Part shown: in pieces, positions 1 through 45,319 of the stretch
Layout of the letters: each line of letters starts with the position of its first letter
Numbering within the stretch: the stretch's first letter is position 1
Virus record (IMG/VR): IMGVR_UViG_3300008339_000033
Strand: one strand, 5' to 3'
Length of the DNA stretch: 64,000 nucleotides
Source: an uncultured virus (IMG/VR IMGVR_UViG_3300008339_000033)
Taxonomy: Duplodnaviria; Heunggongvirae; Uroviricota; Caudoviricetes
Notes under the pieces: model-generated
What the model saw: the letters and a program-made list of their open reading frames with translations, nothing else
Told to the model about the DNA's origin: nothing
Database searches by the model: none
Made by a program: the position numbers and the translations under genes

Positions 1-618
1 AACGAACTTAAATTGATAGTTTGAGTGTTCCATGATGCGTTTGATAGCATCAGGATTGATACGTTGTTTTTCAGCTAGACCTGAGTTGGATAGTTTAGGT
101 GAGCAGTTGATTTGATGTAAATATTTCCATAGCATATCATCAATATAAACTGTACCATTAGTTTCTATTTCATTATATTCAGTTATATCGATATCTGATC
201 TTGTCCAAGTATTTAAGAAATTACTAATGGCTTCTTGGTGTCCTTTAATTGTAGGTTCACCACCAGTCCAAATAATGTGGATAGTACCATTTTTAACATC
301 CTCATAAATGCCTTGTTCTTTCCATTGATCGATTAGATATTGGAAGTCTTTTTCTTCACCTCTCCATAACCATTGAGATGTACTATCGCAGGTCCATGTG
401 GCTTTACCTTCTAGCTCTAAATCACCTTTGAATATCTCCCCATCTTCTAATGATTTATCTTTCATTAGTTGATTGGCAAACTTACGAGACATACCGCAGG
501 TTAAGTTACAGATTCCTAAGCGAACAAAGTATGAAGGAATACCCGTAGATATTCCCTCACCTTGTACACTATAAAAGTCTGAGCTTATTAATAGTTTATT
601 TGGATTAATTGCGCTCAT
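1..618 (-). CDS. queE: 7-carboxy-7-deazaguanine synthase QueE (radical SAM); runs off the left edge and is missing from the ORF track
   Basis: Manual translation from ATG 618: MSAINPNKLLISSDFYSVQGEGISTGIPSYFVRLGICNLTC...WTCDS...IIWTGGEPT...IETNGT...NCSPKLSNSG. These are typical QueE motifs. The start overlaps the queD stop (TAATG). Confidence 0.92.
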   Translation of the reverse strand, partial: MSAINPNKLLISSDFYSVQGEGISTGIPSYFVRLGICNLTCGMSRKFANQLMKDKSLEDGEIFKGDLELEGKATWTCDSTSQWLWRGEEKDFQYLIDQWKEQGIYEDVKNGTIHIIWTGGEPTIKGHQEAISNFLNTWTRSDIDITEYNEIETNGTVYIDDMLWKYLHQINCSPKLSNSGLAEKQRINPDAIKRIMEHSNYQFKFV

Positions 619-1310
619 TAGAATACTAATTCAGGAGTTACTGTTTTTGGTTTAAAGTATGATTCTAAAAAACTTTTAGGGTAAAGTAAAACTTGACCTT
701 TATATGTTTTAGTTTGAACTTCACGTACATTTATAGATACTTTAAGTTTAGTTGCTACTTCAGCAACCTTTTTACCTAGTTCACTACCTGCAGGACGTCC
801 TAAATAATCATACAGTGATAACATTTCTTCTTTTTTTGTTGTATTTTGAGTTTCCATATAACTTGCTGAGTTTCTATCGTGTTCGTAAACTTCTACTTTT
901 ATGGCTCGTACACGGCCTTTTGTTTCTTCTTTTAAAAATCTATTAATTTGTCTATAAAGATATTCTGCAAAACGTTCACATCCTGTAGCAGGAAGTACTC
1001 GTAATTGAATAATACCATCTTTATCCATTTGCACAAATTTATCTAGATATGGATCATCTGATGCTACAATTGTGGTATGATCAAGTAGATATGTAAAGAA
1101 ATCTTTAGGTGATTTACCTCCAATTTTATGTTTAGCACGCTTCATACCTCCAAAATCCCATACCCAGTTACGTTCATCTAGATCTCCTTCGAACCATACT
1201 CTAAAAGATACAGCATATCCATGAAGATATTTACAATGAGTACTATCTGCTTTCCATTGACGAAAACATGTACTGAATCCATCAAATAATTTGGTTGATT
1301 GGAATTTCAT
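618..1310 (-). CDS. queD: 6-carboxytetrahydropterin synthase QueD with an extra ~75 aa C-terminal domain
   Basis: HCKYLHGY, WDFG, LDH, ERFAEY and VEVYEH..NSASY motifs; lies between queE and queC. Confidence 0.9.
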   Translation of the reverse strand: MKFQSTKLFDGFSTCFRQWKADSTHCKYLHGYAVSFRVWFEGDLDERNWVWDFGGMKRAKHKIGGKSPKDFFTYLLDHTTIVASDDPYLDKFVQMDKDGIIQLRVLPATGCERFAEYLYRQINRFLKEETKGRVRAIKVEVYEHDRNSASYMETQNTTKKEEMLSLYDYLGRPAGSELGKKVAEVATKLKVSINVREVQTKTYKGQVLLYPKSFLESYFKPKTVTPELVF

Positions 1311-2362: not shown

Positions 2363-3172
2363 CTATTTATTTTTCCATTTTTCTAAAATACTTTTAACAT
2401 AAGTTTTAACAACATCCCAACTTACTTCACCATTTTCATCTTCATATTGAATAGGGTCAGGATGACCTAGTTGAATAAATGCTTCGATACGTTCTACTGA
2501 AGATGCTGATTTATAGTCACTATTACCTGATGGGTATGGTTTATAACTTGTGTTAGTACGCCGGTATATTTCATTAAAATCTAATTCCAATTCTTGACAT
2601 ATTTCATACCCAGCTTCTAAGATAGAAGCTTTATCAATAAGTAAATAAGGAGTATAATAATTTACTTTCTCAGAACCCCAATTACCTAATTTAAATGCTT
2701 CTAAATCTGCATCTCTAAATTCAGGTCTACAGTCGGGGTAAACACTTTCGTCTCCTTTATGTATTCCCATTGCAACATCTACAAAGCAATTATGTTTTTC
2801 AGCAATAGATAAAGCAATAGCTTGAGTAATTGAACTAAAAATTTTATTGCGATTAGGTACTACTGTTGCTTTCATATTATCATCAGCATAGTGACCTTCA
2901 GGTACTTCATCACCTCCAGTTACTAATGTTGAATTTAATAATTGTGATAAACCATCTAGTTTAATTACTTGATATGTAATATCATTTTCAAAACCTTGAG
3001 ATGTCAAATAATCTATTAAAGATTGAGCTCGTTCTAACTCAACTTTATGTTTTTGACCATAGTCAAATGATACACACGTTACTTGATAATCATAATTTAA
3101 TAGATGTAGCAATAAAGTGCTACTATCCATTCCACCTGAGAGTGATAGTACTGCTTGTTTCTTCATAGTCAT
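2363..3172 (-). CDS. queC: 7-cyano-7-deazaguanine synthase QueC
   Basis: SLSGGMDSST PP-loop, SFDYGQKH, TVVPNRN, YPDCRPEF. Confidence 0.95.
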   Translation of the reverse strand: MTMKKQAVLSLSGGMDSSTLLLHLLNYDYQVTCVSFDYGQKHKVELERAQSLIDYLTSQGFENDITYQVIKLDGLSQLLNSTLVTGGDEVPEGHYADDNMKATVVPNRNKIFSSITQAIALSIAEKHNCFVDVAMGIHKGDESVYPDCRPEFRDADLEAFKLGNWGSEKVNYYTPYLLIDKASILEAGYEICQELELDFNEIYRRTNTSYKPYPSGNSDYKSASSVERIEAFIQLGHPDPIQYEDENGEVSWDVVKTYVKSILEKWKNK

Positions 3173-3363
3173 TGTTTAATCAATTTATATTCATCAAGAT
3201 ACGATTTTTTTGCAAAGAATCCAAGATTAATTAAATCTTCCTGTGTAATAAAATCTCTATTATCCCATATTGTTTTTAGTATCTCAGCCAATTCAGTGTC
3301 ATAAGGACGATTAAATTCTGCTCGGGCTTTATTTCCTAAATAAATTGTTTTAACAGTATGCAT
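3169..3363 (-). CDS. hypothetical protein
   Basis: 64 aa; start and stop overlap both neighbours. Confidence 0.6.
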   Translation of the reverse strand: MHTVKTIYLGNKARAEFNRPYDTELAEILKTIWDNRDFITQEDLINLGFFAKKSYLDEYKLIKQ

Positions 3364-4187
3364 TATAAGTTATTTAAGGTTTTAAAATAGAGTACATTTT
3401 GGTTTAAAAGATCAAGATTAATTAGAGATAAATCTATTTCCATAACATCATCAATTCTAGTTACTGGTTTAGTTTCTAATCCAAATTTAGTATATTCTAG
3501 TCCTTCAATTGAAGCCATGATAGGATTAGAAGTATCGATAGTACTAATAATATTTCTAATTTCTTTTTCATAAAACGAAAATTCTTGAGGTAATTGACAT
3601 CCTAATAAATGAATATTATCGTGTTCATCTAAAAATCCTAATTCAAATAACCAAGTTATAAATTCAATCCTTCCTAACATAGTTCTAACATGAGTATTTC
3701 TTTCACTATGAGGAGTACTATAATTAACCATATCTTTATACCAAGAAGCACCATAAGAGAAAGCAATCTTTTTGTATCCTAAATGGTTTTTATAAATAGA
3801 AAAACACTCTAATGCTTCTTCTTTACTATTACCTTGTACTACAGGAATAAAAACTGTATCAGGAAATTGTTCTTGATATTGAGACCAAGCTTTAGCTGAT
3901 ACTAATGATTGATTTTTATCTTGCCAGTAATCTGGGATAAAGAATTCTTGTGGTTTTAATTCTTCTAGCCAATATAATAATCGGTCTTTTGAATAGGGAG
4001 TTCCTAACTCGTGTAGTGAATTATCCATCATAATATGAATACCTTCATCTCTACATTTCAGAAAAAAATTTTTATATTCCTCATACTTATCCATTAAGTG
4101 AGGTAAGCAATATTGATAATCGTTGTATTGTCTGCTATGTTCTAGCAAACACAGGGGTACTTCATGTGATGATTTAATTTTCTTCAT
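3363..4187 (-). CDS. dpdA: TGT-fold DNA transglycosylase, DpdA-like (inserts 7-deazaguanine into DNA)
   Basis: IMMDNS (first catalytic Asp), FIPD, FIPVVQG, IHLLG, STIDTSNP (second Asp); next to queC/D/E. Confidence 0.75.
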   Translation of the reverse strand: MKKIKSSHEVPLCLLEHSRQYNDYQYCLPHLMDKYEEYKNFFLKCRDEGIHIMMDNSLHELGTPYSKDRLLYWLEELKPQEFFIPDYWQDKNQSLVSAKAWSQYQEQFPDTVFIPVVQGNSKEEALECFSIYKNHLGYKKIAFSYGASWYKDMVNYSTPHSERNTHVRTMLGRIEFITWLFELGFLDEHDNIHLLGCQLPQEFSFYEKEIRNIISTIDTSNPIMASIEGLEYTKFGLETKPVTRIDDVMEIDLSLINLDLLNQNVLYFKTLNNL

Positions 4188-40196: not shown

Positions 40197-40224
40197 GGTG
40201 TTTTTATAATAAATATGATAAGAA

Positions 40225-40911
40225 TTAGTCTCTATATTCCATATAGACTTTTAAAATTTCTTCTACTATTTCATGGCGATGATTAGTTTTAAGAGTCATT
40301 ACTTTAACTCCTTTAACCCGCTCTTCTAATCGTAAAAAGAAATCAATACCTGAATCTTTTCTAACTTTTAAGTCAATTTGGGCTATATCTCCACAGAATA
40401 CCATTTTACCACCTCTACCTAAACGACCTAACATCATTTCAGTTTGCTGGTGAGTAATATTTTGACATTCATCTACAATTACAAATGAATTAGGAAATGT
40501 TCTACCTCTCATAAATGCAAAAGGTACTATCTCAATTTCACCTTCAGCTACCATTTTATCTATTCTATCTTTATCATAAAGTAAATAAAGATTAGCATAA
40601 ATAGGAGCTAACCAAGGATCCATTTTTTCCTTTAAATCACCTGGTAAAAAACCAATTTCTTCTTTTGCTACTGTAGGACGAGTAATAATAATTTTCTCTA
40701 TATCCTTTTTAAAAAACATATCTAGTGCAGATTGACAGGCAACTAATGTTTTACCTGAACCTGCCATACCTTTTAATAAAACTATCGGGTTTGAATATAT
40801 TAACTGTTTGGCTTCTTTTTGTTCATCGTTTAAAGTAAGCTTAAACTTAATTTCACCTTTAGGTTTTCTTTTTTCTTTGAAGATCTCGTCTTCATGGTGA
40901 TTACTAGCCAT
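40225..40911 (-). CDS. phoH: PhoH-family ATPase
   Basis: GMAGSGKT, ITRP, IGFLPG, FMRGRTF, DECQN, GDIAQID. Confidence 0.95.
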   Translation of the reverse strand: MASNHHEDEIFKEKRKPKGEIKFKLTLNDEQKEAKQLIYSNPIVLLKGMAGSGKTLVACQSALDMFFKKDIEKIIITRPTVAKEEIGFLPGDLKEKMDPWLAPIYANLYLLYDKDRIDKMVAEGEIEIVPFAFMRGRTFPNSFVIVDECQNITHQQTEMMLGRLGRGGKMVFCGDIAQIDLKVRKDSGIDFFLRLEERVKGVKVMTLKTNHRHEIVEEILKVYMEYRD

Positions 40912-40921
40912 AATGTTTTAT

Positions 40922-40929
40922 TATAAATA
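40922..40929 (-). promoter_or_regulatory. late-type promoter motif TATTTATA (phoH)
   Basis: 10 nt before ATG. Confidence 0.65.
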
Positions 40930-41655
40930 TTAATCTCTTGTTGAAATTTTTACCAATTTATCAATTCCTGCTTCAACATGCATATGTTCAGGTAAACATA
41001 ATTCAAAATCAAAACGTGAATCTAAAGGCAATACTAAATCTGTTTGAGAACCCCATCTGATAAGAGAAAATCTACTATTTTGAGTAAATAATTCATTTTG
41101 ATCTGTAGTAAAAGGAACTATAACATCTACATCCTCGTCTGCAATTTGTATCATATAATAAGAATAATCTAAAGATGGAGAATATACTTTATTCCACATT
41201 CTTTCATTATTTTTTACATAAGGAATAACATGCTTTGGATTTATAACTCCATTTAATAGATTTTTTTCAACAGCCAACATAGGTTTATTACTTGATTCAA
41301 TTGAATCTAATTGTTTATATTGTAATACACCTGTATATGGGATTCTATTAATATGAACATCATAAAATGACATGAATATACCAATTACAAGAGATGGTTT
41401 ATTATAACTTTTATCACCCATTAATTCTTGTAATGAATAGTTCATACCCTTTACCTCAACCATAGCTTTTGAAGGATCCTCTACTATTTTTTGATATAAA
41501 ACCACACCATCTGCTGGAGCGTAGAAATGTTGATTATCTATATAAGTGGGGCGCATAGGATCCCTAAAGAAAAATGTATTTCCTAATTCTACTAGGGATA
41601 ATTTTTCTAATTCGGCTACATCAGTATCCAACCATTCTTCTATTGTTTTTGCCAT
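40930..41655 (-). CDS. phosphatidylserine-decarboxylase-family pyruvoyl enzyme lacking a membrane anchor
   Basis: FFRDP, APADGVV, IFMSFYDVHINRIP, NER, IQIA, and the IRWGSQTD self-cleavage site. Confidence 0.82.
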   Translation of the reverse strand: MAKTIEEWLDTDVAELEKLSLVELGNTFFFRDPMRPTYIDNQHFYAPADGVVLYQKIVEDPSKAMVEVKGMNYSLQELMGDKSYNKPSLVIGIFMSFYDVHINRIPYTGVLQYKQLDSIESSNKPMLAVEKNLLNGVINPKHVIPYVKNNERMWNKVYSPSLDYSYYMIQIADEDVDVIVPFTTDQNELFTQNSRFSLIRWGSQTDLVLPLDSRFDFELCLPEHMHVEAGIDKLVKISTRD

Positions 41656-41656
41656 C

Positions 41657-42571
41657 TTATACTAACTGTTTGTAATAATCAACATAATTTAAATGCATAA
41701 CCATACAGCTCAATAAAGCTCCTGATTTCATATATTCTGATAGGTTAAAGAATACTGGTTCCATTCCTTCTTTAGCACATATTGCTTCTAATGAATTAAT
41801 CTTATGTTTTTCATAAGCATAATCCTCATGAGTTTTACTTAATTCAGAAATATTAGAAGCACATAAAATTAAATTACCAAAACGAACTGAATTAGTAATA
41901 CCACCCAAGGCATCATCTTCATCTATGTCTATAACTTGAGTATATTTTTCTATATCGCGGATCTCTTCAGGATCAAACATCGACGTGCAAATCATAGTTT
42001 TTTCTTTACTGAGTGGAAAAATTGAACAGTCCAAATGATATAAATAATCATCAACCATTTCAACATCAATAATATTCATACCAAATTGTTCCCGCATCCA
42101 CTCATATGTTTTATGATCGGTACGGATACCTGAACCACCAATATAATTATTACCTCCAATAAATTTAAGATCAGCCTCTCCTTCCCATTTATAAGGACAT
42201 AAATGAGTATCATAATTCATTAATTTGAAAAATGCCTCTCCAATTTTTTCTTCTCCTATTCTAGGTTCTGAGGTGTAATTAGATAAAACTATATTATTTG
42301 AATCTTTAATATGAGGTAAATAAATACCTAAATTAGCCACATATACTTGATCTTGAAAATCACCAAGAGATGGAAGTAAATATACTAACCCATCTCCTGA
42401 TAGGAAATTATAAAGATCCATAAATTGTTTATAAGCTTTTTTTCTATTTACTTGTAGATCATCTGGTGATAATTCTTTCATCCAAATGTTATTAGGATTC
42501 TTAGTATCCAAAGTAAATGGGAAATTCATTACATAACTTGGGATGTTTAATTGTGATGGGGTTTCTTTCAT
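41657..42571 (-). CDS. amidinotransferase / guanidino-modifying (pentein) enzyme, arginine-dihydrolase/DDAH-like (start 42571 or 42583)
   Basis: DQVYVANLG, WEGEAD, GIRT, LYHLDC, SEYMKSGALLSC (catalytic Cys). Confidence 0.85.
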   Translation of the reverse strand: MKETPSQLNIPSYVMNFPFTLDTKNPNNIWMKELSPDDLQVNRKKAYKQFMDLYNFLSGDGLVYLLPSLGDFQDQVYVANLGIYLPHIKDSNNIVLSNYTSEPRIGEEKIGEAFFKLMNYDTHLCPYKWEGEADLKFIGGNNYIGGSGIRTDHKTYEWMREQFGMNIIDVEMVDDYLYHLDCSIFPLSKEKTMICTSMFDPEEIRDIEKYTQVIDIDEDDALGGITNSVRFGNLILCASNISELSKTHEDYAYEKHKINSLEAICAKEGMEPVFFNLSEYMKSGALLSCMVMHLNYVDYYKQLV

Positions 42572-42591
42572 ATTTGTTAACATTGATTTAA

Positions 42592-42600
42592 CATAAATAT
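42592..42600 (-). promoter_or_regulatory. late-type promoter (ATATTTATG) for the amidinotransferase/decarboxylase pair
   Basis: Variant of the recurrent motif, just downstream of the capsid terminator. Confidence 0.6.
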
Positions 42601-42640
42601 AATAAAACCTACTAAAAACCACAAGTTAAATAAAAAGAAA

Positions 42641-42668
42641 AACAAAAAGGGCCGCAAATTGCGGCCCT
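42641..42668 (-). terminator. intrinsic terminator after the major capsid gene
   Basis: AGGGCCGC/GCGGCCCT stem followed by a U tract. Confidence 0.88.
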
Positions 42669-42690
42669 CTGTTTTTATATGTTATGTAGA

Positions 42691-44307
42691 TTAAAGAGTA
42701 TTTAATCCAGATACATAAATTTTCCCATAAAACTCGGGACGTAACATCTTCTTAGCGTAACGAGTCAAGAGACCTTTTCTTGGTGTAAAGGTATCAGGAT
42801 CGTACACTAATGGAGTCATTACGAGTGGTACATAAGGAGCAAATACAGCACCTGCTTCTAAGAACTGGCTACCTCTGAAACCTAATAAAATAGTGTTTTC
42901 AGTCATGTATGGGTTCTTGTAAACATTGTATCTACCATTCAATGAACCAGCTTTCTGAACACCAAACGCATATTGCATTTGAGCAGCATCACCATTGTTA
43001 TTAGCAGCGAATCCTGGAATTGATTCAAGGATAGTTGCTACTGTAGGAGAGCATACTAAGAAGTTTGCACCACCACGAAGTGTTAATTGGTGAATTTTGT
43101 TGCTAAGTTTCTGAATCTTAGTACCAAGAGTTTGGAACCAACCACCTTGAGTATTATAGAATCCTAAAGTAGCTGCAGGAGTTGCTGATGCACCAGTAAT
43201 AACAGTGTTATTAATTGCTGACCAATATTCAGTACCAGCTGCTGCATCTTGAATCAACATATCAAGAATTTCGAGGTCAATTTCCATAGAAATATACTCG
43301 CTCATGATGTTAGTTAATTCAGCTTCAGCATCGATATTTTGGTAAGCACTTAAATCTTGTGCATATTCAGGTGTCCAAACTGCCTTTAATTTACGTGTTT
43401 TAGCCACAATTGCTTGTGATTGCATTTTTACGTTAATTTCTGGGATTGCAATTGGGTTATTTTGACCATTCAACTGAGTGTTACCATCTTCAAAGTCGCC
43501 TCTCTTATTATCGGCTGTGGCTAATGAATGAGAAACAACAAATGTTAATGTTCCACCACCTACTTGTGAACCAGTTACTACAAATGTTACTGAAGTTCCG
43601 CTTGTAGTTGTGAAAGCTGGTAAATAAGTTAAAGCAACACTTGATGAATATGGAACAAAACTTCTAGCTGCTTCAAAATCTGTAGTAGTTGGTAAAGAAA
43701 CTGTAATAGTTTTCCATTGACCTGCTACAGCTGAAGCTGAGTAATCAGAATCAAAATTAAAAGTTGTACCCCAGTTAGCTGAACTAGTAGTTGAAGTAGC
43801 TGTAGATGCTGTGTTATTTACTGAGTAACCAAATCTACCAGCACCATAAAGACCACCATCAGTAGTGTTAGTAGCGAATGGATAGGTAGAGTTAACTGTT
43901 GAAGTACCACCGTACATTGAACCATTTTGAGTAAATGGAGCTTTGTTAGTACCGTATTGAAAATCTAGGAAGAATACTAGTCCAGAAGGTAAGTTCATTG
44001 GTTGAACTGAAACGAATTCTTTCGCTACAATTTGACCAAATACCTTACGTACTAATGGAAGAGCAATACCAGCCCAGTTCTCACCTTGTCCTACTGTAAA
44101 AGTGTTATTTGTAGTAGAAGTAGTTGAGTTTTCAGTTACTAATTGTTTTGCTTGATTTTCAAGCAACATTGCCATGTTGTTTCTGTCGGCTTCTGTTAAA
44201 CCTTCCAATAAACCGGTTTTAGACCATTTAGAGGCCAATCTACCGGCATCACTTTGAAGTGATTTCCAAGGGTTAGCAGATTCCAATAATGATTGAATTG
44301 AGTTCAT
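42691..44307 (-). CDS. major capsid protein (gp23-like)
   Basis: LLENQ, LPLVRK, VSVQPMNLPSGLVFFL, AKTRKLKAVWTPE, APYVPL, FTPRKGLLTRY. Confidence 0.97.
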   Translation of the reverse strand: MNSIQSLLESANPWKSLQSDAGRLASKWSKTGLLEGLTEADRNNMAMLLENQAKQLVTENSTTSTTNNTFTVGQGENWAGIALPLVRKVFGQIVAKEFVSVQPMNLPSGLVFFLDFQYGTNKAPFTQNGSMYGGTSTVNSTYPFATNTTDGGLYGAGRFGYSVNNTASTATSTTSSANWGTTFNFDSDYSASAVAGQWKTITVSLPTTTDFEAARSFVPYSSSVALTYLPAFTTTSGTSVTFVVTGSQVGGGTLTFVVSHSLATADNKRGDFEDGNTQLNGQNNPIAIPEINVKMQSQAIVAKTRKLKAVWTPEYAQDLSAYQNIDAEAELTNIMSEYISMEIDLEILDMLIQDAAAGTEYWSAINNTVITGASATPAATLGFYNTQGGWFQTLGTKIQKLSNKIHQLTLRGGANFLVCSPTVATILESIPGFAANNNGDAAQMQYAFGVQKAGSLNGRYNVYKNPYMTENTILLGFRGSQFLEAGAVFAPYVPLVMTPLVYDPDTFTPRKGLLTRYAKKMLRPEFYGKIYVSGLNTL

Positions 44308-44338
44308 ATTATTTTAAATCTTTTTTTAGGGTTAATAA

Positions 44339-45319
44339 TTATTTTAATCCAGCTAATTTTTGCATTCTTGAGAATACATCATTAACTTCGATTATTGGTT
44401 GTTTTGTCTCTGGTTTTGAAATAACTTTAGAAGCTGAACCTAATGATTCTTTAATAGATGATTTGGTTTTGTTAGTATTTACCATTAAAGATTCATAAAC
44501 TAGTTTTACTTCTTTTACATTTAATGCTTTATCAAAAGCACTTAAAACTTTAACTTTTTCAGACTCAGTCAATGATTTAGCTTTGAAAATCTTGTTGGTA
44601 TAAAGAAGTTTTGCATTCAAAAGATTAATTTCGTTAAGTTCGCTTTTTAATGTTTTAATAACATCATATGCTTCTTTTAACTTTTCATCTTCTTCATCTT
44701 TTTTAGGAGCTGATTTTTTCTTATCTCTCATTGCTTGCATTTTCATCTTCATTGATTTTTCTTTTGCTGCTTCAGCTAAAAGTTCATCAATGCTGATTTC
44801 TTCTGCACCTCCCATTTCTTCTTCACCACCCATTTCTGGTTGGCCACCTTCTAATTCTCCAGAAGCTACCATATCTTGAATTACATCTTCAATAAATTTG
44901 GTAAGATCTCCTTCTGACATGTCTTCGATGTTAAACTCTTCTTCAGTTTCCATTTCTTCGCCTTCTTCATCACCTTCGGCTTCGTAAAGTTCTTCTAAAT
45001 CTTCACCTTCTTCCATTGGTTCTGAATCTTTGTCTAATTCGGCTAGAAGTTCTTCTAAATCGAGTTCTCCTTCTTCCATTGATTCTTCGCCTTCTTCCAT
45101 TTTCATATCGTCACCTTCATACATTTTTTCTTCATCCATGTACATGTTTTCTTCCATTTCATCCGCTTCATCTAATGCAGCGATTCTAGTGGCTAAGGTT
45201 TCTTTTAAAAATGGAGTAAAAGCTTCTTCTAAAGCAACTTTAGCTTGAGCTAATGCGGTTTCTTTTACTGCTTTGGCATCAGCGATAGCTTCTTTAAGCA
45301 GGTCTCTGTTTGATTCCAT
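44339..45319 (-). CDS. prohead scaffold/core protein (gp22-like)
   Basis: Very acidic coiled coil directly upstream of the capsid gene; LNEINLLNAKLLY. Confidence 0.82.
   Translation of the reverse strand: MESNRDLLKEAIADAKAVKETALAQAKVALEEAFTPFLKETLATRIAALDEADEMEENMYMDEEKMYEGDDMKMEEGEESMEEGELDLEELLAELDKDSEPMEEGEDLEELYEAEGDEEGEEMETEEEFNIEDMSEGDLTKFIEDVIQDMVASGELEGGQPEMGGEEEMGGAEEISIDELLAEAAKEKSMKMKMQAMRDKKKSAPKKDEEDEKLKEAYDVIKTLKSELNEINLLNAKLLYTNKIFKAKSLTESEKVKVLSAFDKALNVKEVKLVYESLMVNTNKTKSSIKESLGSASKVISKPETKQPIIEVNDVFSRMQKLAGLK

Follow-up and report, generated by a model that had tools for sequence, protein, structure and literature searches.

A phage gene pair encoding an ArgZ/AgrE-like pentein and a predicted soluble PSD-fold decarboxylase: a possible route from arginine to putrescine

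We analysed a 64,000-nucleotide stretch of DNA from an uncultured virus (IMG/VR record IMGVR_UViG_3300008339_000033; hereafter the window), in which two adjoining genes, placed between those for a gp23-type capsid protein and a PhoH-like ATPase, encode a pentein-fold hydrolase resembling the arginine dihydrolases ArgZ and AgrE (gene 1) and a predicted soluble pyruvoyl decarboxylase with the fold of phosphatidylserine decarboxylase, PSD (gene 2). The fold-level assignment of both genes is well supported, and it is plausible that together they form a two-step pathway from arginine via ornithine to putrescine. The window belongs to a single virus contig of 128,411 bp (29.6% G+C) with nearly all of its genes on the minus strand; as judged by its gp23 capsid, portal, terminase, sheath, tube and baseplate genes, the phage is a T4-like myovirus. 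SprB-repeat, CHU_C/T9SS and PKD domains among the phage proteins point to a host in the Bacteroidota, and the lineage seems to be a freshwater one, given the labels (lake water, freshwater, drinking water, aquatic, estuary, sediment and 'fungus' metagenomes) of the 17 DNA runs, from 12 studies, in which 21-50% of the sampled words from positions 40200-44400 were found. The locus is laid out as follows (window coordinates; nt, nucleotides; aa, amino acids):

40225-40911, minus strand: phoH-like ATPase gene, the downstream neighbour (PhoH, 214.6 bits)
40923-40930, minus strand: second copy of the ATATTTAT motif, overlapping the gene 2 stop by one base, 19 nt before the phoH ATG
40930-41655, minus strand: gene 2, predicted soluble PSD-fold pyruvoyl-decarboxylase proenzyme, 241 aa
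41657-42571, minus strand: gene 1, stand-alone ArgZ/AgrE-like pentein hydrolase, 304 aa
42593-42600, minus strand: ATATTTAT motif, a candidate late-promoter element lying 29 nt before the gene 1 start (ATG at 42571)
42646-42670, minus strand: intrinsic-terminator-like hairpin and T run just past the gp23 stop, the 5' boundary of the unit
42691-44307, minus strand: gp23-type major capsid protein gene, the upstream neighbour (Pfam Gp23, 262 bits)

Both genes are on the minus strand and, as an initial annotation made from the letters of the window had it, are separated by 1 nt: the TAA of gene 1 is followed by one base and then by the ATG of gene 2. The motifs which that annotation quoted (DQVYVANLG, WEGEAD, YHLD and EYMKSGALLSC in gene 1; MAKTIEEWLDTDVAELEKL, FFRDP and RWGSQ in gene 2) are all present in the translations. 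The pentein reading frame is open from a GTG at 42622 and has a further in-frame ATG at 42583; we consider both starts less likely than the ATG at 42571, because the homologues are typically 304 aa long and the ATATTTAT motif then sits at 29 nt upstream. The hairpin past gp23 (42670-42646) has an 11-pair stem with 7 G-C pairs, a loop of 3 and a T-rich tail; terminator-like sites number 7 in the 6.5 kb scanned, against 2.8 expected. The pair had been described as bracketed on both sides. At the 5' side the gp23 terminator and a ATATTTAT copy are indeed in place, and a second copy does precede phoH, but there is no terminator-like site between gene 2 and phoH, the next one on the strand being at 39340-39316. 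The unit is thus bounded at its 5' side only, and transcription probably continues across phoH and a pair of small open reading frames (ORFs).

The ATATTTAT motif itself is a plausible late-promoter element, as judged by its distribution: of 27 copies on the coding strand of the window (versus 4 on the opposite strand), 18 are found at most 60 nt upstream of starts, mostly those of structural genes, and the whole 128-kb contig holds 51 versus 13 by strand (about 24 expected), most densely in the structural module. Three freshwater metatranscriptome runs yielded contigs that resemble parts of gp23 and phoH at 90-99%, and none that reached 90% on the pair; these contigs come from relatives of the phage and are uninformative on transcription of the pair.

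The first protein of the pair is a pentein. Searched against the PDB by sequence, gene 1 found ArgZ and AgrE alone (E 8e-12), and a profile of three phage clades again returned just ArgZ/AgrE below E = 0.2 (E 3e-22). Its AlphaFold2 model (predicted local distance difference test score, pLDDT, 91.9) aligns best to ArgZ/AgrE, with a Z of 34.4 and an rmsd (root-mean-square deviation) of 1.8 Å over 264 residues at 24% identity, followed by AstB (Z 27.7), dimethylarginine dimethylaminohydrolase (DDAH, 26.7), NnhA (26.1), arginine deiminase (ADI, 25.8), the amidinotransferases (~24) and, as the most distant pentein group, the agmatine deiminases (~20.7). The two nearest groups, ArgZ/AgrE and AstB, are both dihydrolases. 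The ArgZ/AgrE likeness proposed in the initial annotation is therefore the closest one by both sequence and predicted structure. As for family models, gene 1 barely passes Pfam DDAH_eukar (26.4 bits, cut-off 23) and falls below the NCBIfam model for bifunctional ArgZ (bifunc_ArgZ, NF052231; 62 bits, cut-off 1025). The protein is a single domain without the fused C-terminal ornithine-using domain of ArgZ/AgrE, and its family is large, with 1,997 clusters at 90% identity. Its key codons, all on the minus strand, are:

42350-42352, minus strand: D74
42332-42334, minus strand: N80
42260-42262, minus strand: R104
42182-42184, minus strand: E130
42122-42124, minus strand: R150
42035-42037, minus strand: H179
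42029-42031, minus strand: D181
41705-41707, minus strand: C289

In an alignment of 17 homologues (9 phage-type and 8 bacterial), D74, N80, E130, R150, H179, D181 and C289 are present in 17/17 and R104 in 16/17. ADI and DDAH place two arginines on the substrate carboxylate and one aspartate on its amine, a second aspartate binds the guanidino group in both, and ADI has an H-x-D motif where DDAH has H-x-K (PMC11659421, used here in excerpt, as are the other papers cited by PMC number). With roles transferred by alignment from these two enzymes, D74, R104 and R150 of gene 1 would bind a free amino acid, and the catalytic Cys and His are kept, as is E130, presumably the acidic partner of the His. 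The motif is H179-L-D181 in 17/17 homologues, that is, of the ADI type and not the H-x-K of DDAH. Taken together, the amino-acid-binding residues and the H-x-D make gene 1 look built for free, unmethylated arginine. N80 is aligned with ArgZ Asn71 (as counted on the alignment) and C289 with ArgZ Cys264, two residues that appear in PDB titles through the intermediate-trapping variant N71S and the variant C264S. Two other pentein assignments were rejected for gene 1: DDAH, given the H-x-D, an NCBIfam DDAH-Mtb score of 82.2 bits against a cut-off of 300 and the Z of 26.7 against 34.4 for ArgZ; and agmatine deiminase, given the lowest structural Z and the lack of any match to the Pfam agmatine deiminase family (PF04371) at E <= 0.1.

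The same active site could accommodate a route in which the pentein stops at citrulline, gene 2 turns citrulline into N-carbamoylputrescine, and a host N-carbamoylputrescine amidohydrolase, an enzyme that the hosts of the three phage groups use, completes the path to putrescine. The ADI-type H-x-D (H179, D181) and the amino-acid-binding residues would suit such a deiminase, and the sequence by itself gives no proof of a second hydrolytic step. The model is, however, nearer to the dihydrolases (ArgZ/AgrE 34.4, AstB 27.7) than to ADI (25.8), and Asn80 occupies the position of the second guanidino-binding Asp just as Asn71 does in ArgZ, so that we regard the citrulline route as quite improbable.

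The second protein belongs to the PSD fold. The codons that matter for its predicted processing are:

41509-41511, minus strand: D49
41359-41361, minus strand: D99
41353-41355, minus strand: H101
41050-41052, minus strand: G202, on one side of the predicted self-cleavage site
41047-41049, minus strand: S203, on its other side

Gene 2 scores 85.9 bits against Pfam PS_Dcarbxylase (PF02666; cut-off 22), and a search of 1.84 billion representative proteins yielded 629 relatives at E <= 0.001, 214 of them at E <= 1e-10, mostly of ~240 aa. In a family alignment of 57 members the conserved PSD core comprises F29, R31, P47, D49, G50, F94, H101, N150, R152, G202 and S203. D49, D99, H101 and S203 align with D90/D142-H144-S254, which form the autocleavage set of E. 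coli PSD (PMC7952604); among the 57 members D49 and D99 are each kept in 47, H101 in 56 and G202-S203 in 55. The earlier reading of intact PSD motifs in gene 2 thus stands. The AlphaFold2 model of gene 2 (pLDDT 90.8) is closest to E. coli PSD (Foldseek E 1e-6; Z 11.2, rmsd 4.4 Å, 170 residues aligned) and, in a tie with it, the fungal tryptophan decarboxylase PsiD (Z 10.3, rmsd 4.4 Å, 171 residues aligned; weak profile match, E 0.007).

What sets gene 2 apart from PSDs is its N-terminus. Within the first 40 residues the top 19-residue Kyte-Doolittle value is at most 0.55 in 57/57 family members, so that the absence of N-terminal membrane helices, first remarked on for the window protein, holds throughout the family; the canonical short PSD of a Saprospiraceae genome that also carries the pair has two hydrophobic segments with values of up to 2.6. 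E. coli PSD has three membrane-binding helices (PMC7952604). As the gene 2 model matches this enzyme from residue 40 on, most of the three helices have no counterpart, and from sequence and model alike gene 2 appears to be soluble and free of a membrane anchor across the family. Two acidic positions, E130 (in 53/57 members) and D173 (55/57), are specific to the family and absent from the three canonical PSDs compared. In a quick tree a long branch sets the family off from canonical PSDs, with a Shimodaira-Hasegawa-like approximate likelihood ratio test (SH-aLRT) support of 99, and 3/4 pair-carrying bacteria hold a separate canonical PSD scoring 144-172 bits versus 75-94 for the paired copy. 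N-terminal membrane helices, a curated equivalog score and a housekeeping role are traits of canonical PSD that gene 2 does not show.

These observations bear on a reading in line with the database annotations, which call the Fletchervirus homologues PSD: that gene 2 is a true phosphatidylserine decarboxylase boosting phosphatidylethanolamine synthesis, with gene 1 an unrelated arginine-catabolic enzyme. The Pfam score well over the cut-off and the intact processing residues are what such an enzyme would show. Yet the family as a whole has lost the membrane-binding N-terminus used by both PSD types, forms a clade of its own and coexists with canonical PSD in three of the four carrier bacteria, and tight linkage to a pentein would be left without explanation; we rate this as the least probable of the alternatives considered here.

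Several members of the gene 2 family depart from the usual architecture. Two (P0125 and P0254) contain inteins with LAGLIDADG endonuclease domains, inserted near residues 95-135. One (P0133, 390 aa) is called as a fusion with an Acb1 anti-CBASS domain and another (P0127, 1,114 aa) as a fusion with a VapB-like and ADP-ribosyltransferase region, either of which may be a real fusion or a read-through gene call. PADLOC gave no match for the gene 1 or the gene 2 protein.

Free amino acids are known substrates of the PSD fold. PsiD (the Psilocybe L-tryptophan decarboxylase; PDB 8X4Q, 8ZIA) shares the fold with gene 2 and acts on a free amino acid, but it is a much larger fungal protein of ~12% identity with an aromatic substrate. 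Ao-ADC1 of Aspergillus oryzae (PDB 9JER, 9JF5, 9JFN) has the PSD fold, decarboxylates arginine by means of a pyruvoyl group and shows no PSD activity (PMC12904898), which makes outdated the statement in the initial annotation that no PSD-fold ornithine or arginine decarboxylase was known. Ao-ADC1 is a soluble protein of the PF02666 fold with a Gly-Ser self-cleavage site, as is predicted for gene 2, and it acts on a free basic amino acid; it differs in having 483 aa, an N-terminal helical region and a GGST site (PMC12904898), whereas gene 2 has 241 aa, derives from the short bacterial PSD type and carries a WGSQ site. The substrate that we propose for gene 2 is ornithine, as opposed to arginine for Ao-ADC1. 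Ao-ADC1 (9JER) gave no profile match to gene 2 at E <= 10 and was not among the structural matches listed for it, though the two may still be related. With E. coli Psd (PDB 6L06, 7CNW) and the short PRK05305/Asd type, gene 2 shares the fold, the D/D-H-S set and the FFR, PADG, VHxNR and GS motifs, but it differs from these bacterial PSDs in lacking a transmembrane or amphipathic N-terminus, in its family-specific inserts and acidic residues, and in its separate clade.

The initial annotation made linkage in related phages a test of its proposal. We examined the best 80 of 191 viral contigs encoding a gene 2 relative, which, being 66-100% identical to the window protein, represent one clade. The pentein gene lies directly upstream of gene 2 in 78/80, and the other two contigs end 9 and 61 nt from gene 2. 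The flanking genes are conserved too, with gp23 upstream in 75/80 and phoH downstream in 78/80. In one related viral contig (L006, positions 1903-2661) a 757-nt insert separates the pentein and PSD-like genes.

Beyond this clade, a search of 50,697 phage records, in which all matches were below 60% identity, found relatives of gene 1 in 46 records (40 from Campylobacter and 6 from Bacteroides phages) and relatives of gene 2 in 45 (39 and 6) from the same two groups, with at least 34 Campylobacter records common to both genes among the matches listed. In Bacteroides phage DAC19 (host B. thetaiotaomicron) the pair is adjacent and in the same order, and in the 2 other Bacteroides phage records listed for both genes tblastn positions place the two genes next to each other. 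In Campylobacter Fletchervirus NCTC12673 the two genes co-occur unlinked, 43 kb apart, the pentein gene between the gp41 helicase and gp45 clamp genes and the PSD-like gene directly downstream of GroES. The DAC19 pair has ligase, helicase, dUTPase-like and GMP-reductase-like genes around it. Only in the clade of the window phage, then, does the pair form part of the late head-gene module, and the proposal that the pair is 'expressed late for DNA packaging' does not carry over to NCTC12673 and DAC19, where the genes lie among those for replication and nucleotide metabolism. Single distant queries against viral loci found nothing and the DAC19 protein query found 1 locus; the diversity of contexts therefore rests on the three phage groups plus bacteria.

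The pair also occurs in bacteria. A scan of 185,579 species genomes gave 12 loci, of which 2 weak partial ones were dropped, 2 were short phage-like contigs and 8 were analysed. The pair is adjacent in 4/8, from three phyla (Verrucomicrobiales, Gaiellaceae, Streptomyces and Saprospiraceae). In a further locus, from a Sulfurifustis metagenome-assembled genome (MAG; L091, 6847-8912), the PSD-like gene is decayed, with 51 matching residues spread over two short ORFs, and the pentein carries R104G, in what looks like a joint decay of the pair. The gene 2 family is rare and patchy in bacteria: none of 400 other genomes sampled from the Saprospiraceae carrier's phylum (Bacteroidota) has it, and in the class of the Streptomyces carrier 1/400 other genomes matched, with a distant copy lacking the pentein. 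A MatE exporter gene stands beside the pair at 3/4 loci and a gene for a PotD/PotF-like binding protein at 1/4. The Streptomyces locus (L092, 2302-14582) contains two PSD-like copies in divergent orientation, one of them fused to two GNAT acetyltransferase domains, and next to its pentein gene are genes for a fused glycosyltransferase/DegT-aminotransferase and for a NodU-like carbamoyltransferase, so that the locus looks like a cluster of the natural-product type. In two Rhodospirillales MAGs (L094 and L096) a solo pentein gene follows one for an adenylate/guanylate-cyclase-TPR protein and precedes a conserved 110-aa ORF.

The bacterial neighbourhoods lend themselves to a different account, in which the product of the pair is some specialised amine or guanidino compound and not bulk polyamine, for example a signal that is exported or acetylated, an antimetabolite or an agent of counter-defence, with the pentein acting as a hydrolase or amidinotransferase on a substrate other than arginine. 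The rarity and patchiness of the pair in bacteria, the MatE genes, the sugar aminotransferase-glycosyltransferase and NodU-like carbamoyltransferase next to the GNAT-fused Streptomyces copy, and the family members called as Acb1 or ADP-ribosyltransferase fusions all fit with it, and penteins can take unusual substrates, as NnhA does (PMC11659421). On the other side stand the invariant arginine-binding residues and ArgZ-like active site, the lack of PADLOC matches and the possibility that the fusions are read-through gene calls; moreover, the very wide spread of the family in lytic T4-like phages (1,997 gene 1 clusters) suggests a general need and not a niche product. On balance we consider a specialised product fairly unlikely.

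The exporter is also relevant to the order of the two reactions. If arginine were decarboxylated first, gene 2 would make agmatine and the pentein would convert agmatine to N-carbamoylputrescine or putrescine. MATE transporters carry guanidinium-type cations such as agmatine, MatE genes flank three of the four bacterial pair loci, and both Bacteroidota and Campylobacter make putrescine via agmatine. The precedent of Ao-ADC1, a PSD-fold enzyme that decarboxylates arginine and has no PSD activity, points the same way (PMC12904898). But the pentein keeps D74, R104 and R150, which would grip an alpha-amine and an alpha-carboxylate, and agmatine has no carboxylate; the agmatine deiminases, furthermore, are structurally remote from the model (Z ~20.7 as compared to 34.4 for ArgZ) and their Pfam family gives no match. 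We thus think it unlikely that arginine is decarboxylated first.

The DAC19 neighbourhood and the gene content of the window phage raise the question of nucleotide, DNA or glycan modification, with the pair supplying an amine or amidino group to a modified base or trimming it from one, as the initial annotation had suggested as a less likely role. The relevant genes of the window phage are:

window 618-1310: QueD-like (PTPS) gene
window 2363-3172: QueC-like gene
window 3363-4187: phrog_19058 gene
L086:10254-10979 (same contig, outside the window): GTP cyclohydrolase I (FolE) gene

QueD-like, QueC-like and FolE genes together make up a 7-deazaguanine pathway, and the phage DNA probably contains modified guanine; neither QueE nor DpdA was identified in the protein scans run on the phage contig. 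Guanine seems to be altered in all three phage groups, and Fletcherviruses replace deoxyguanosine by deoxyinosine (PMC13091555). The DAC19 pair, for its part, lies between dUTPase-like genes and adjoins a GMP-reductase-like gene. No modification system is common to the three groups, however: the GMP-reductase-like gene has relatives in 41 phage records, which include no Campylobacter phage, and no such gene was found in the genome of the window phage; the bacterial carriers have no DNA-modification neighbours; and the pentein residues would bind a free amino acid. A paper on 7-deazaguanine modification assigns the pathway to other proteins and, in its excerpts, names neither gene (PMC10516641). 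We found no support for the base-hypermodification idea and judge it very improbable. DpdL, an enzyme of the 7-deazaguanine pathway, is a paralogue of QueD and not a PSD.

Some further features of these genomes are recorded here as observations. In DAC19 (L001, 5253-11849) the genes flanking the pair are a dUTPase gene, a second dUTPase/dCTP-deaminase-like gene, two for unknown proteins of 348 and 506 aa and the GMP-reductase-like gene (NCBIfam E 4e-25), a set that hints at a change in the purine nucleotide pools. The window phage carries a large block (L085:5002-19578 and L084:18597-19013) of genes for glycosyltransferases (GT2, GT11, GT1), FkbM-type methyltransferases and UDP-glucose dehydrogenase, together with an epimerase/dehydratase, an NAD-synthase-family protein and an MGS-like protein, which makes for a sugar-modification cluster of a kind unusual in phages. 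It also encodes homologues of GroEL and GroES (L086:3010-4964 and L083:5694-5990).

Taken together, sequence comparisons and models suggest that gene 1 and gene 2 are a conserved functional pair made up of an ArgZ-like hydrolase for free arginine and a cytosolic, non-housekeeping pyruvoyl decarboxylase. The simplest chemistry joining them is the conversion of arginine to ornithine and of ornithine to putrescine, and we put the probability that the pair is such a soluble two-step route at roughly 45%. In mechanistic terms, Cys289 of gene 1 would attack the guanidino carbon of free L-arginine, with Asp74 holding the alpha-amine, Arg104 and Arg150 holding the alpha-carboxylate, and His179 with its acidic partner activating water; having Asn in place of the second guanidino-binding Asp, the enzyme would proceed, as ArgZ does, to ornithine, CO2 and two NH3. 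Gene 2 would cleave itself between Gly202 and Ser203 by means of His101 with Asp49 or Asp99, turning Ser203 into the pyruvoyl group, and would then decarboxylate ornithine to putrescine in the cytosol, a location that follows from its lack of a membrane anchor. In the window phage the pair would be transcribed past the capsid terminator from a motif common to structural genes, and may provide more diamine during DNA replication and packaging. AgrE offers a parallel in that its dihydrolase domain is fused to an ornithine-using domain, with ornithine and NAD+ named in the title of PDB 6LRG. The interpretation given in the initial annotation thus survives in its chemistry; for the idea that the product serves packaging, the grounds are only where the pair lies in this clade and the ATATTTAT motif.

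A number of observations weigh against the arginine-ornithine-putrescine route. Gene 1 scores 66.8 bits against the NCBIfam arginine dihydrolase model (Arg_dihydro, NF052232), far below its cut-off of 450, and the meaning of N80 depends on the mechanistic role that we take ArgZ Asn71 to have. Gene 2 is nearest, among NCBIfam models, to those of short PRK05305/Asd-type PSDs (best 68.5 bits, cut-off 225), and although E130 and D173 would suit a cationic side chain, these are roles that we infer. The one characterised PSD-fold enzyme known to act on a basic amino acid, Ao-ADC1, takes arginine and not ornithine (PMC12904898). Linkage is imperfect: in 3/8 bacterial loci the pentein has no PSD-like gene within 8 kb, one genome (G656) has a distant PSD-like gene (29% identity) without the pentein, and the position of the pair differs between phage clades. 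Among longer proteins no pentein-PSD fusion was found, the two matches both lacking a pentein domain. No other polyamine gene was found in the 128-kb contig, as scanned with the exception of 2 locus-boundary ORFs and of ORFs below ~90 aa outside the window. Finally, the MatE exporter and the GNAT fusion could equally well accompany an exported or acetylated specialised amine.

The components of the proposed route have known counterparts. ArgZ (Synechocystis Sll1336) and AgrE (Anabaena Alr4995; PDB 6JUY-6JV1 and 6LRF-6LRH) share with gene 1 the pentein fold, the Cys, the His, the Asn71 equivalent and the amino-acid-binding Asp and Arg; gene 1 differs in standing alone, in its ~24% identity, in being partnered by a separate decarboxylase gene and in occurring in phages and scattered non-cyanobacterial bacteria. 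Polyamine genes of viruses include pelagiphage pyruvoyl ornithine or arginine decarboxylases derived from S-adenosylmethionine decarboxylase (AdoMetDC) and the PBCV-1 pathway of arginine decarboxylase (ADC), agmatine iminohydrolase (AIH), NCPAH (N-carbamoylputrescine amidohydrolase) and HSS (homospermidine synthase); no arginase was reported from phages in a survey of their polyamine genes (PMC9992855, PMC10407285). As is proposed for the gene pair, pyruvoyl-dependent enzymes encoded by these viruses supply putrescine or agmatine, an auxiliary metabolic function, but the pelagiphage and PBCV-1 decarboxylases have the AdoMetDC fold and gene 2 has the PSD fold. The main texts of the two papers contain none of the terms 'phosphatidylserine', 'dihydrolase', 'Campylobacter' and 'Bacteroid(es)' (PMC9992855, PMC10407285). 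In the main texts, as opposed to supplements, of the literature on phage PSD and amidinotransferase genes, virus polyamines, PSD-like proteins and dihydrolase-putrescine routes we found no account of the pair.

Should the route operate as proposed, gene 2 would be the first ornithine decarboxylase of the PSD family and, together with an ArgZ-type dihydrolase, would constitute a route from arginine to putrescine that is free of pyridoxal phosphate (PLP) and of urea, spread by phages and coupled to an exporter in a few bacteria, a tentative conclusion to which we give somewhat less than an even chance. Its novelty is tempered by precedents for each part, namely ArgZ, the PSD-fold amino-acid decarboxylases PsiD and Ao-ADC1, and the polyamine genes of phages. 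Polyamines are needed by phages for replication, translation and DNA condensation, and the polyamine enzymes of viruses are an active field; the pair would add a fourth enzyme fold for putrescine biosynthesis and a route bypassing both the agmatine and the arginase pathways, and would provide the first function of an ArgZ-type dihydrolase beyond cyanobacterial nitrogen recycling. Its wide spread would be owed to three kinds of phage: abundant aquatic T4-like ones that infect Bacteroidota, those of gut Bacteroides, and the Fletcherviruses of Campylobacter. As cultivable carriers exist, DAC19 and Fletcherviruses among them, the pathway question can be tested directly. A positive answer would give a function to genes that now bear the labels 'amidinotransferase', 'DDAH' or 'phosphatidylserine decarboxylase', be it in Campylobacter phages that are candidates for therapy, in phages of Bacteroides or on phage contigs from the environment, which number in the thousands.

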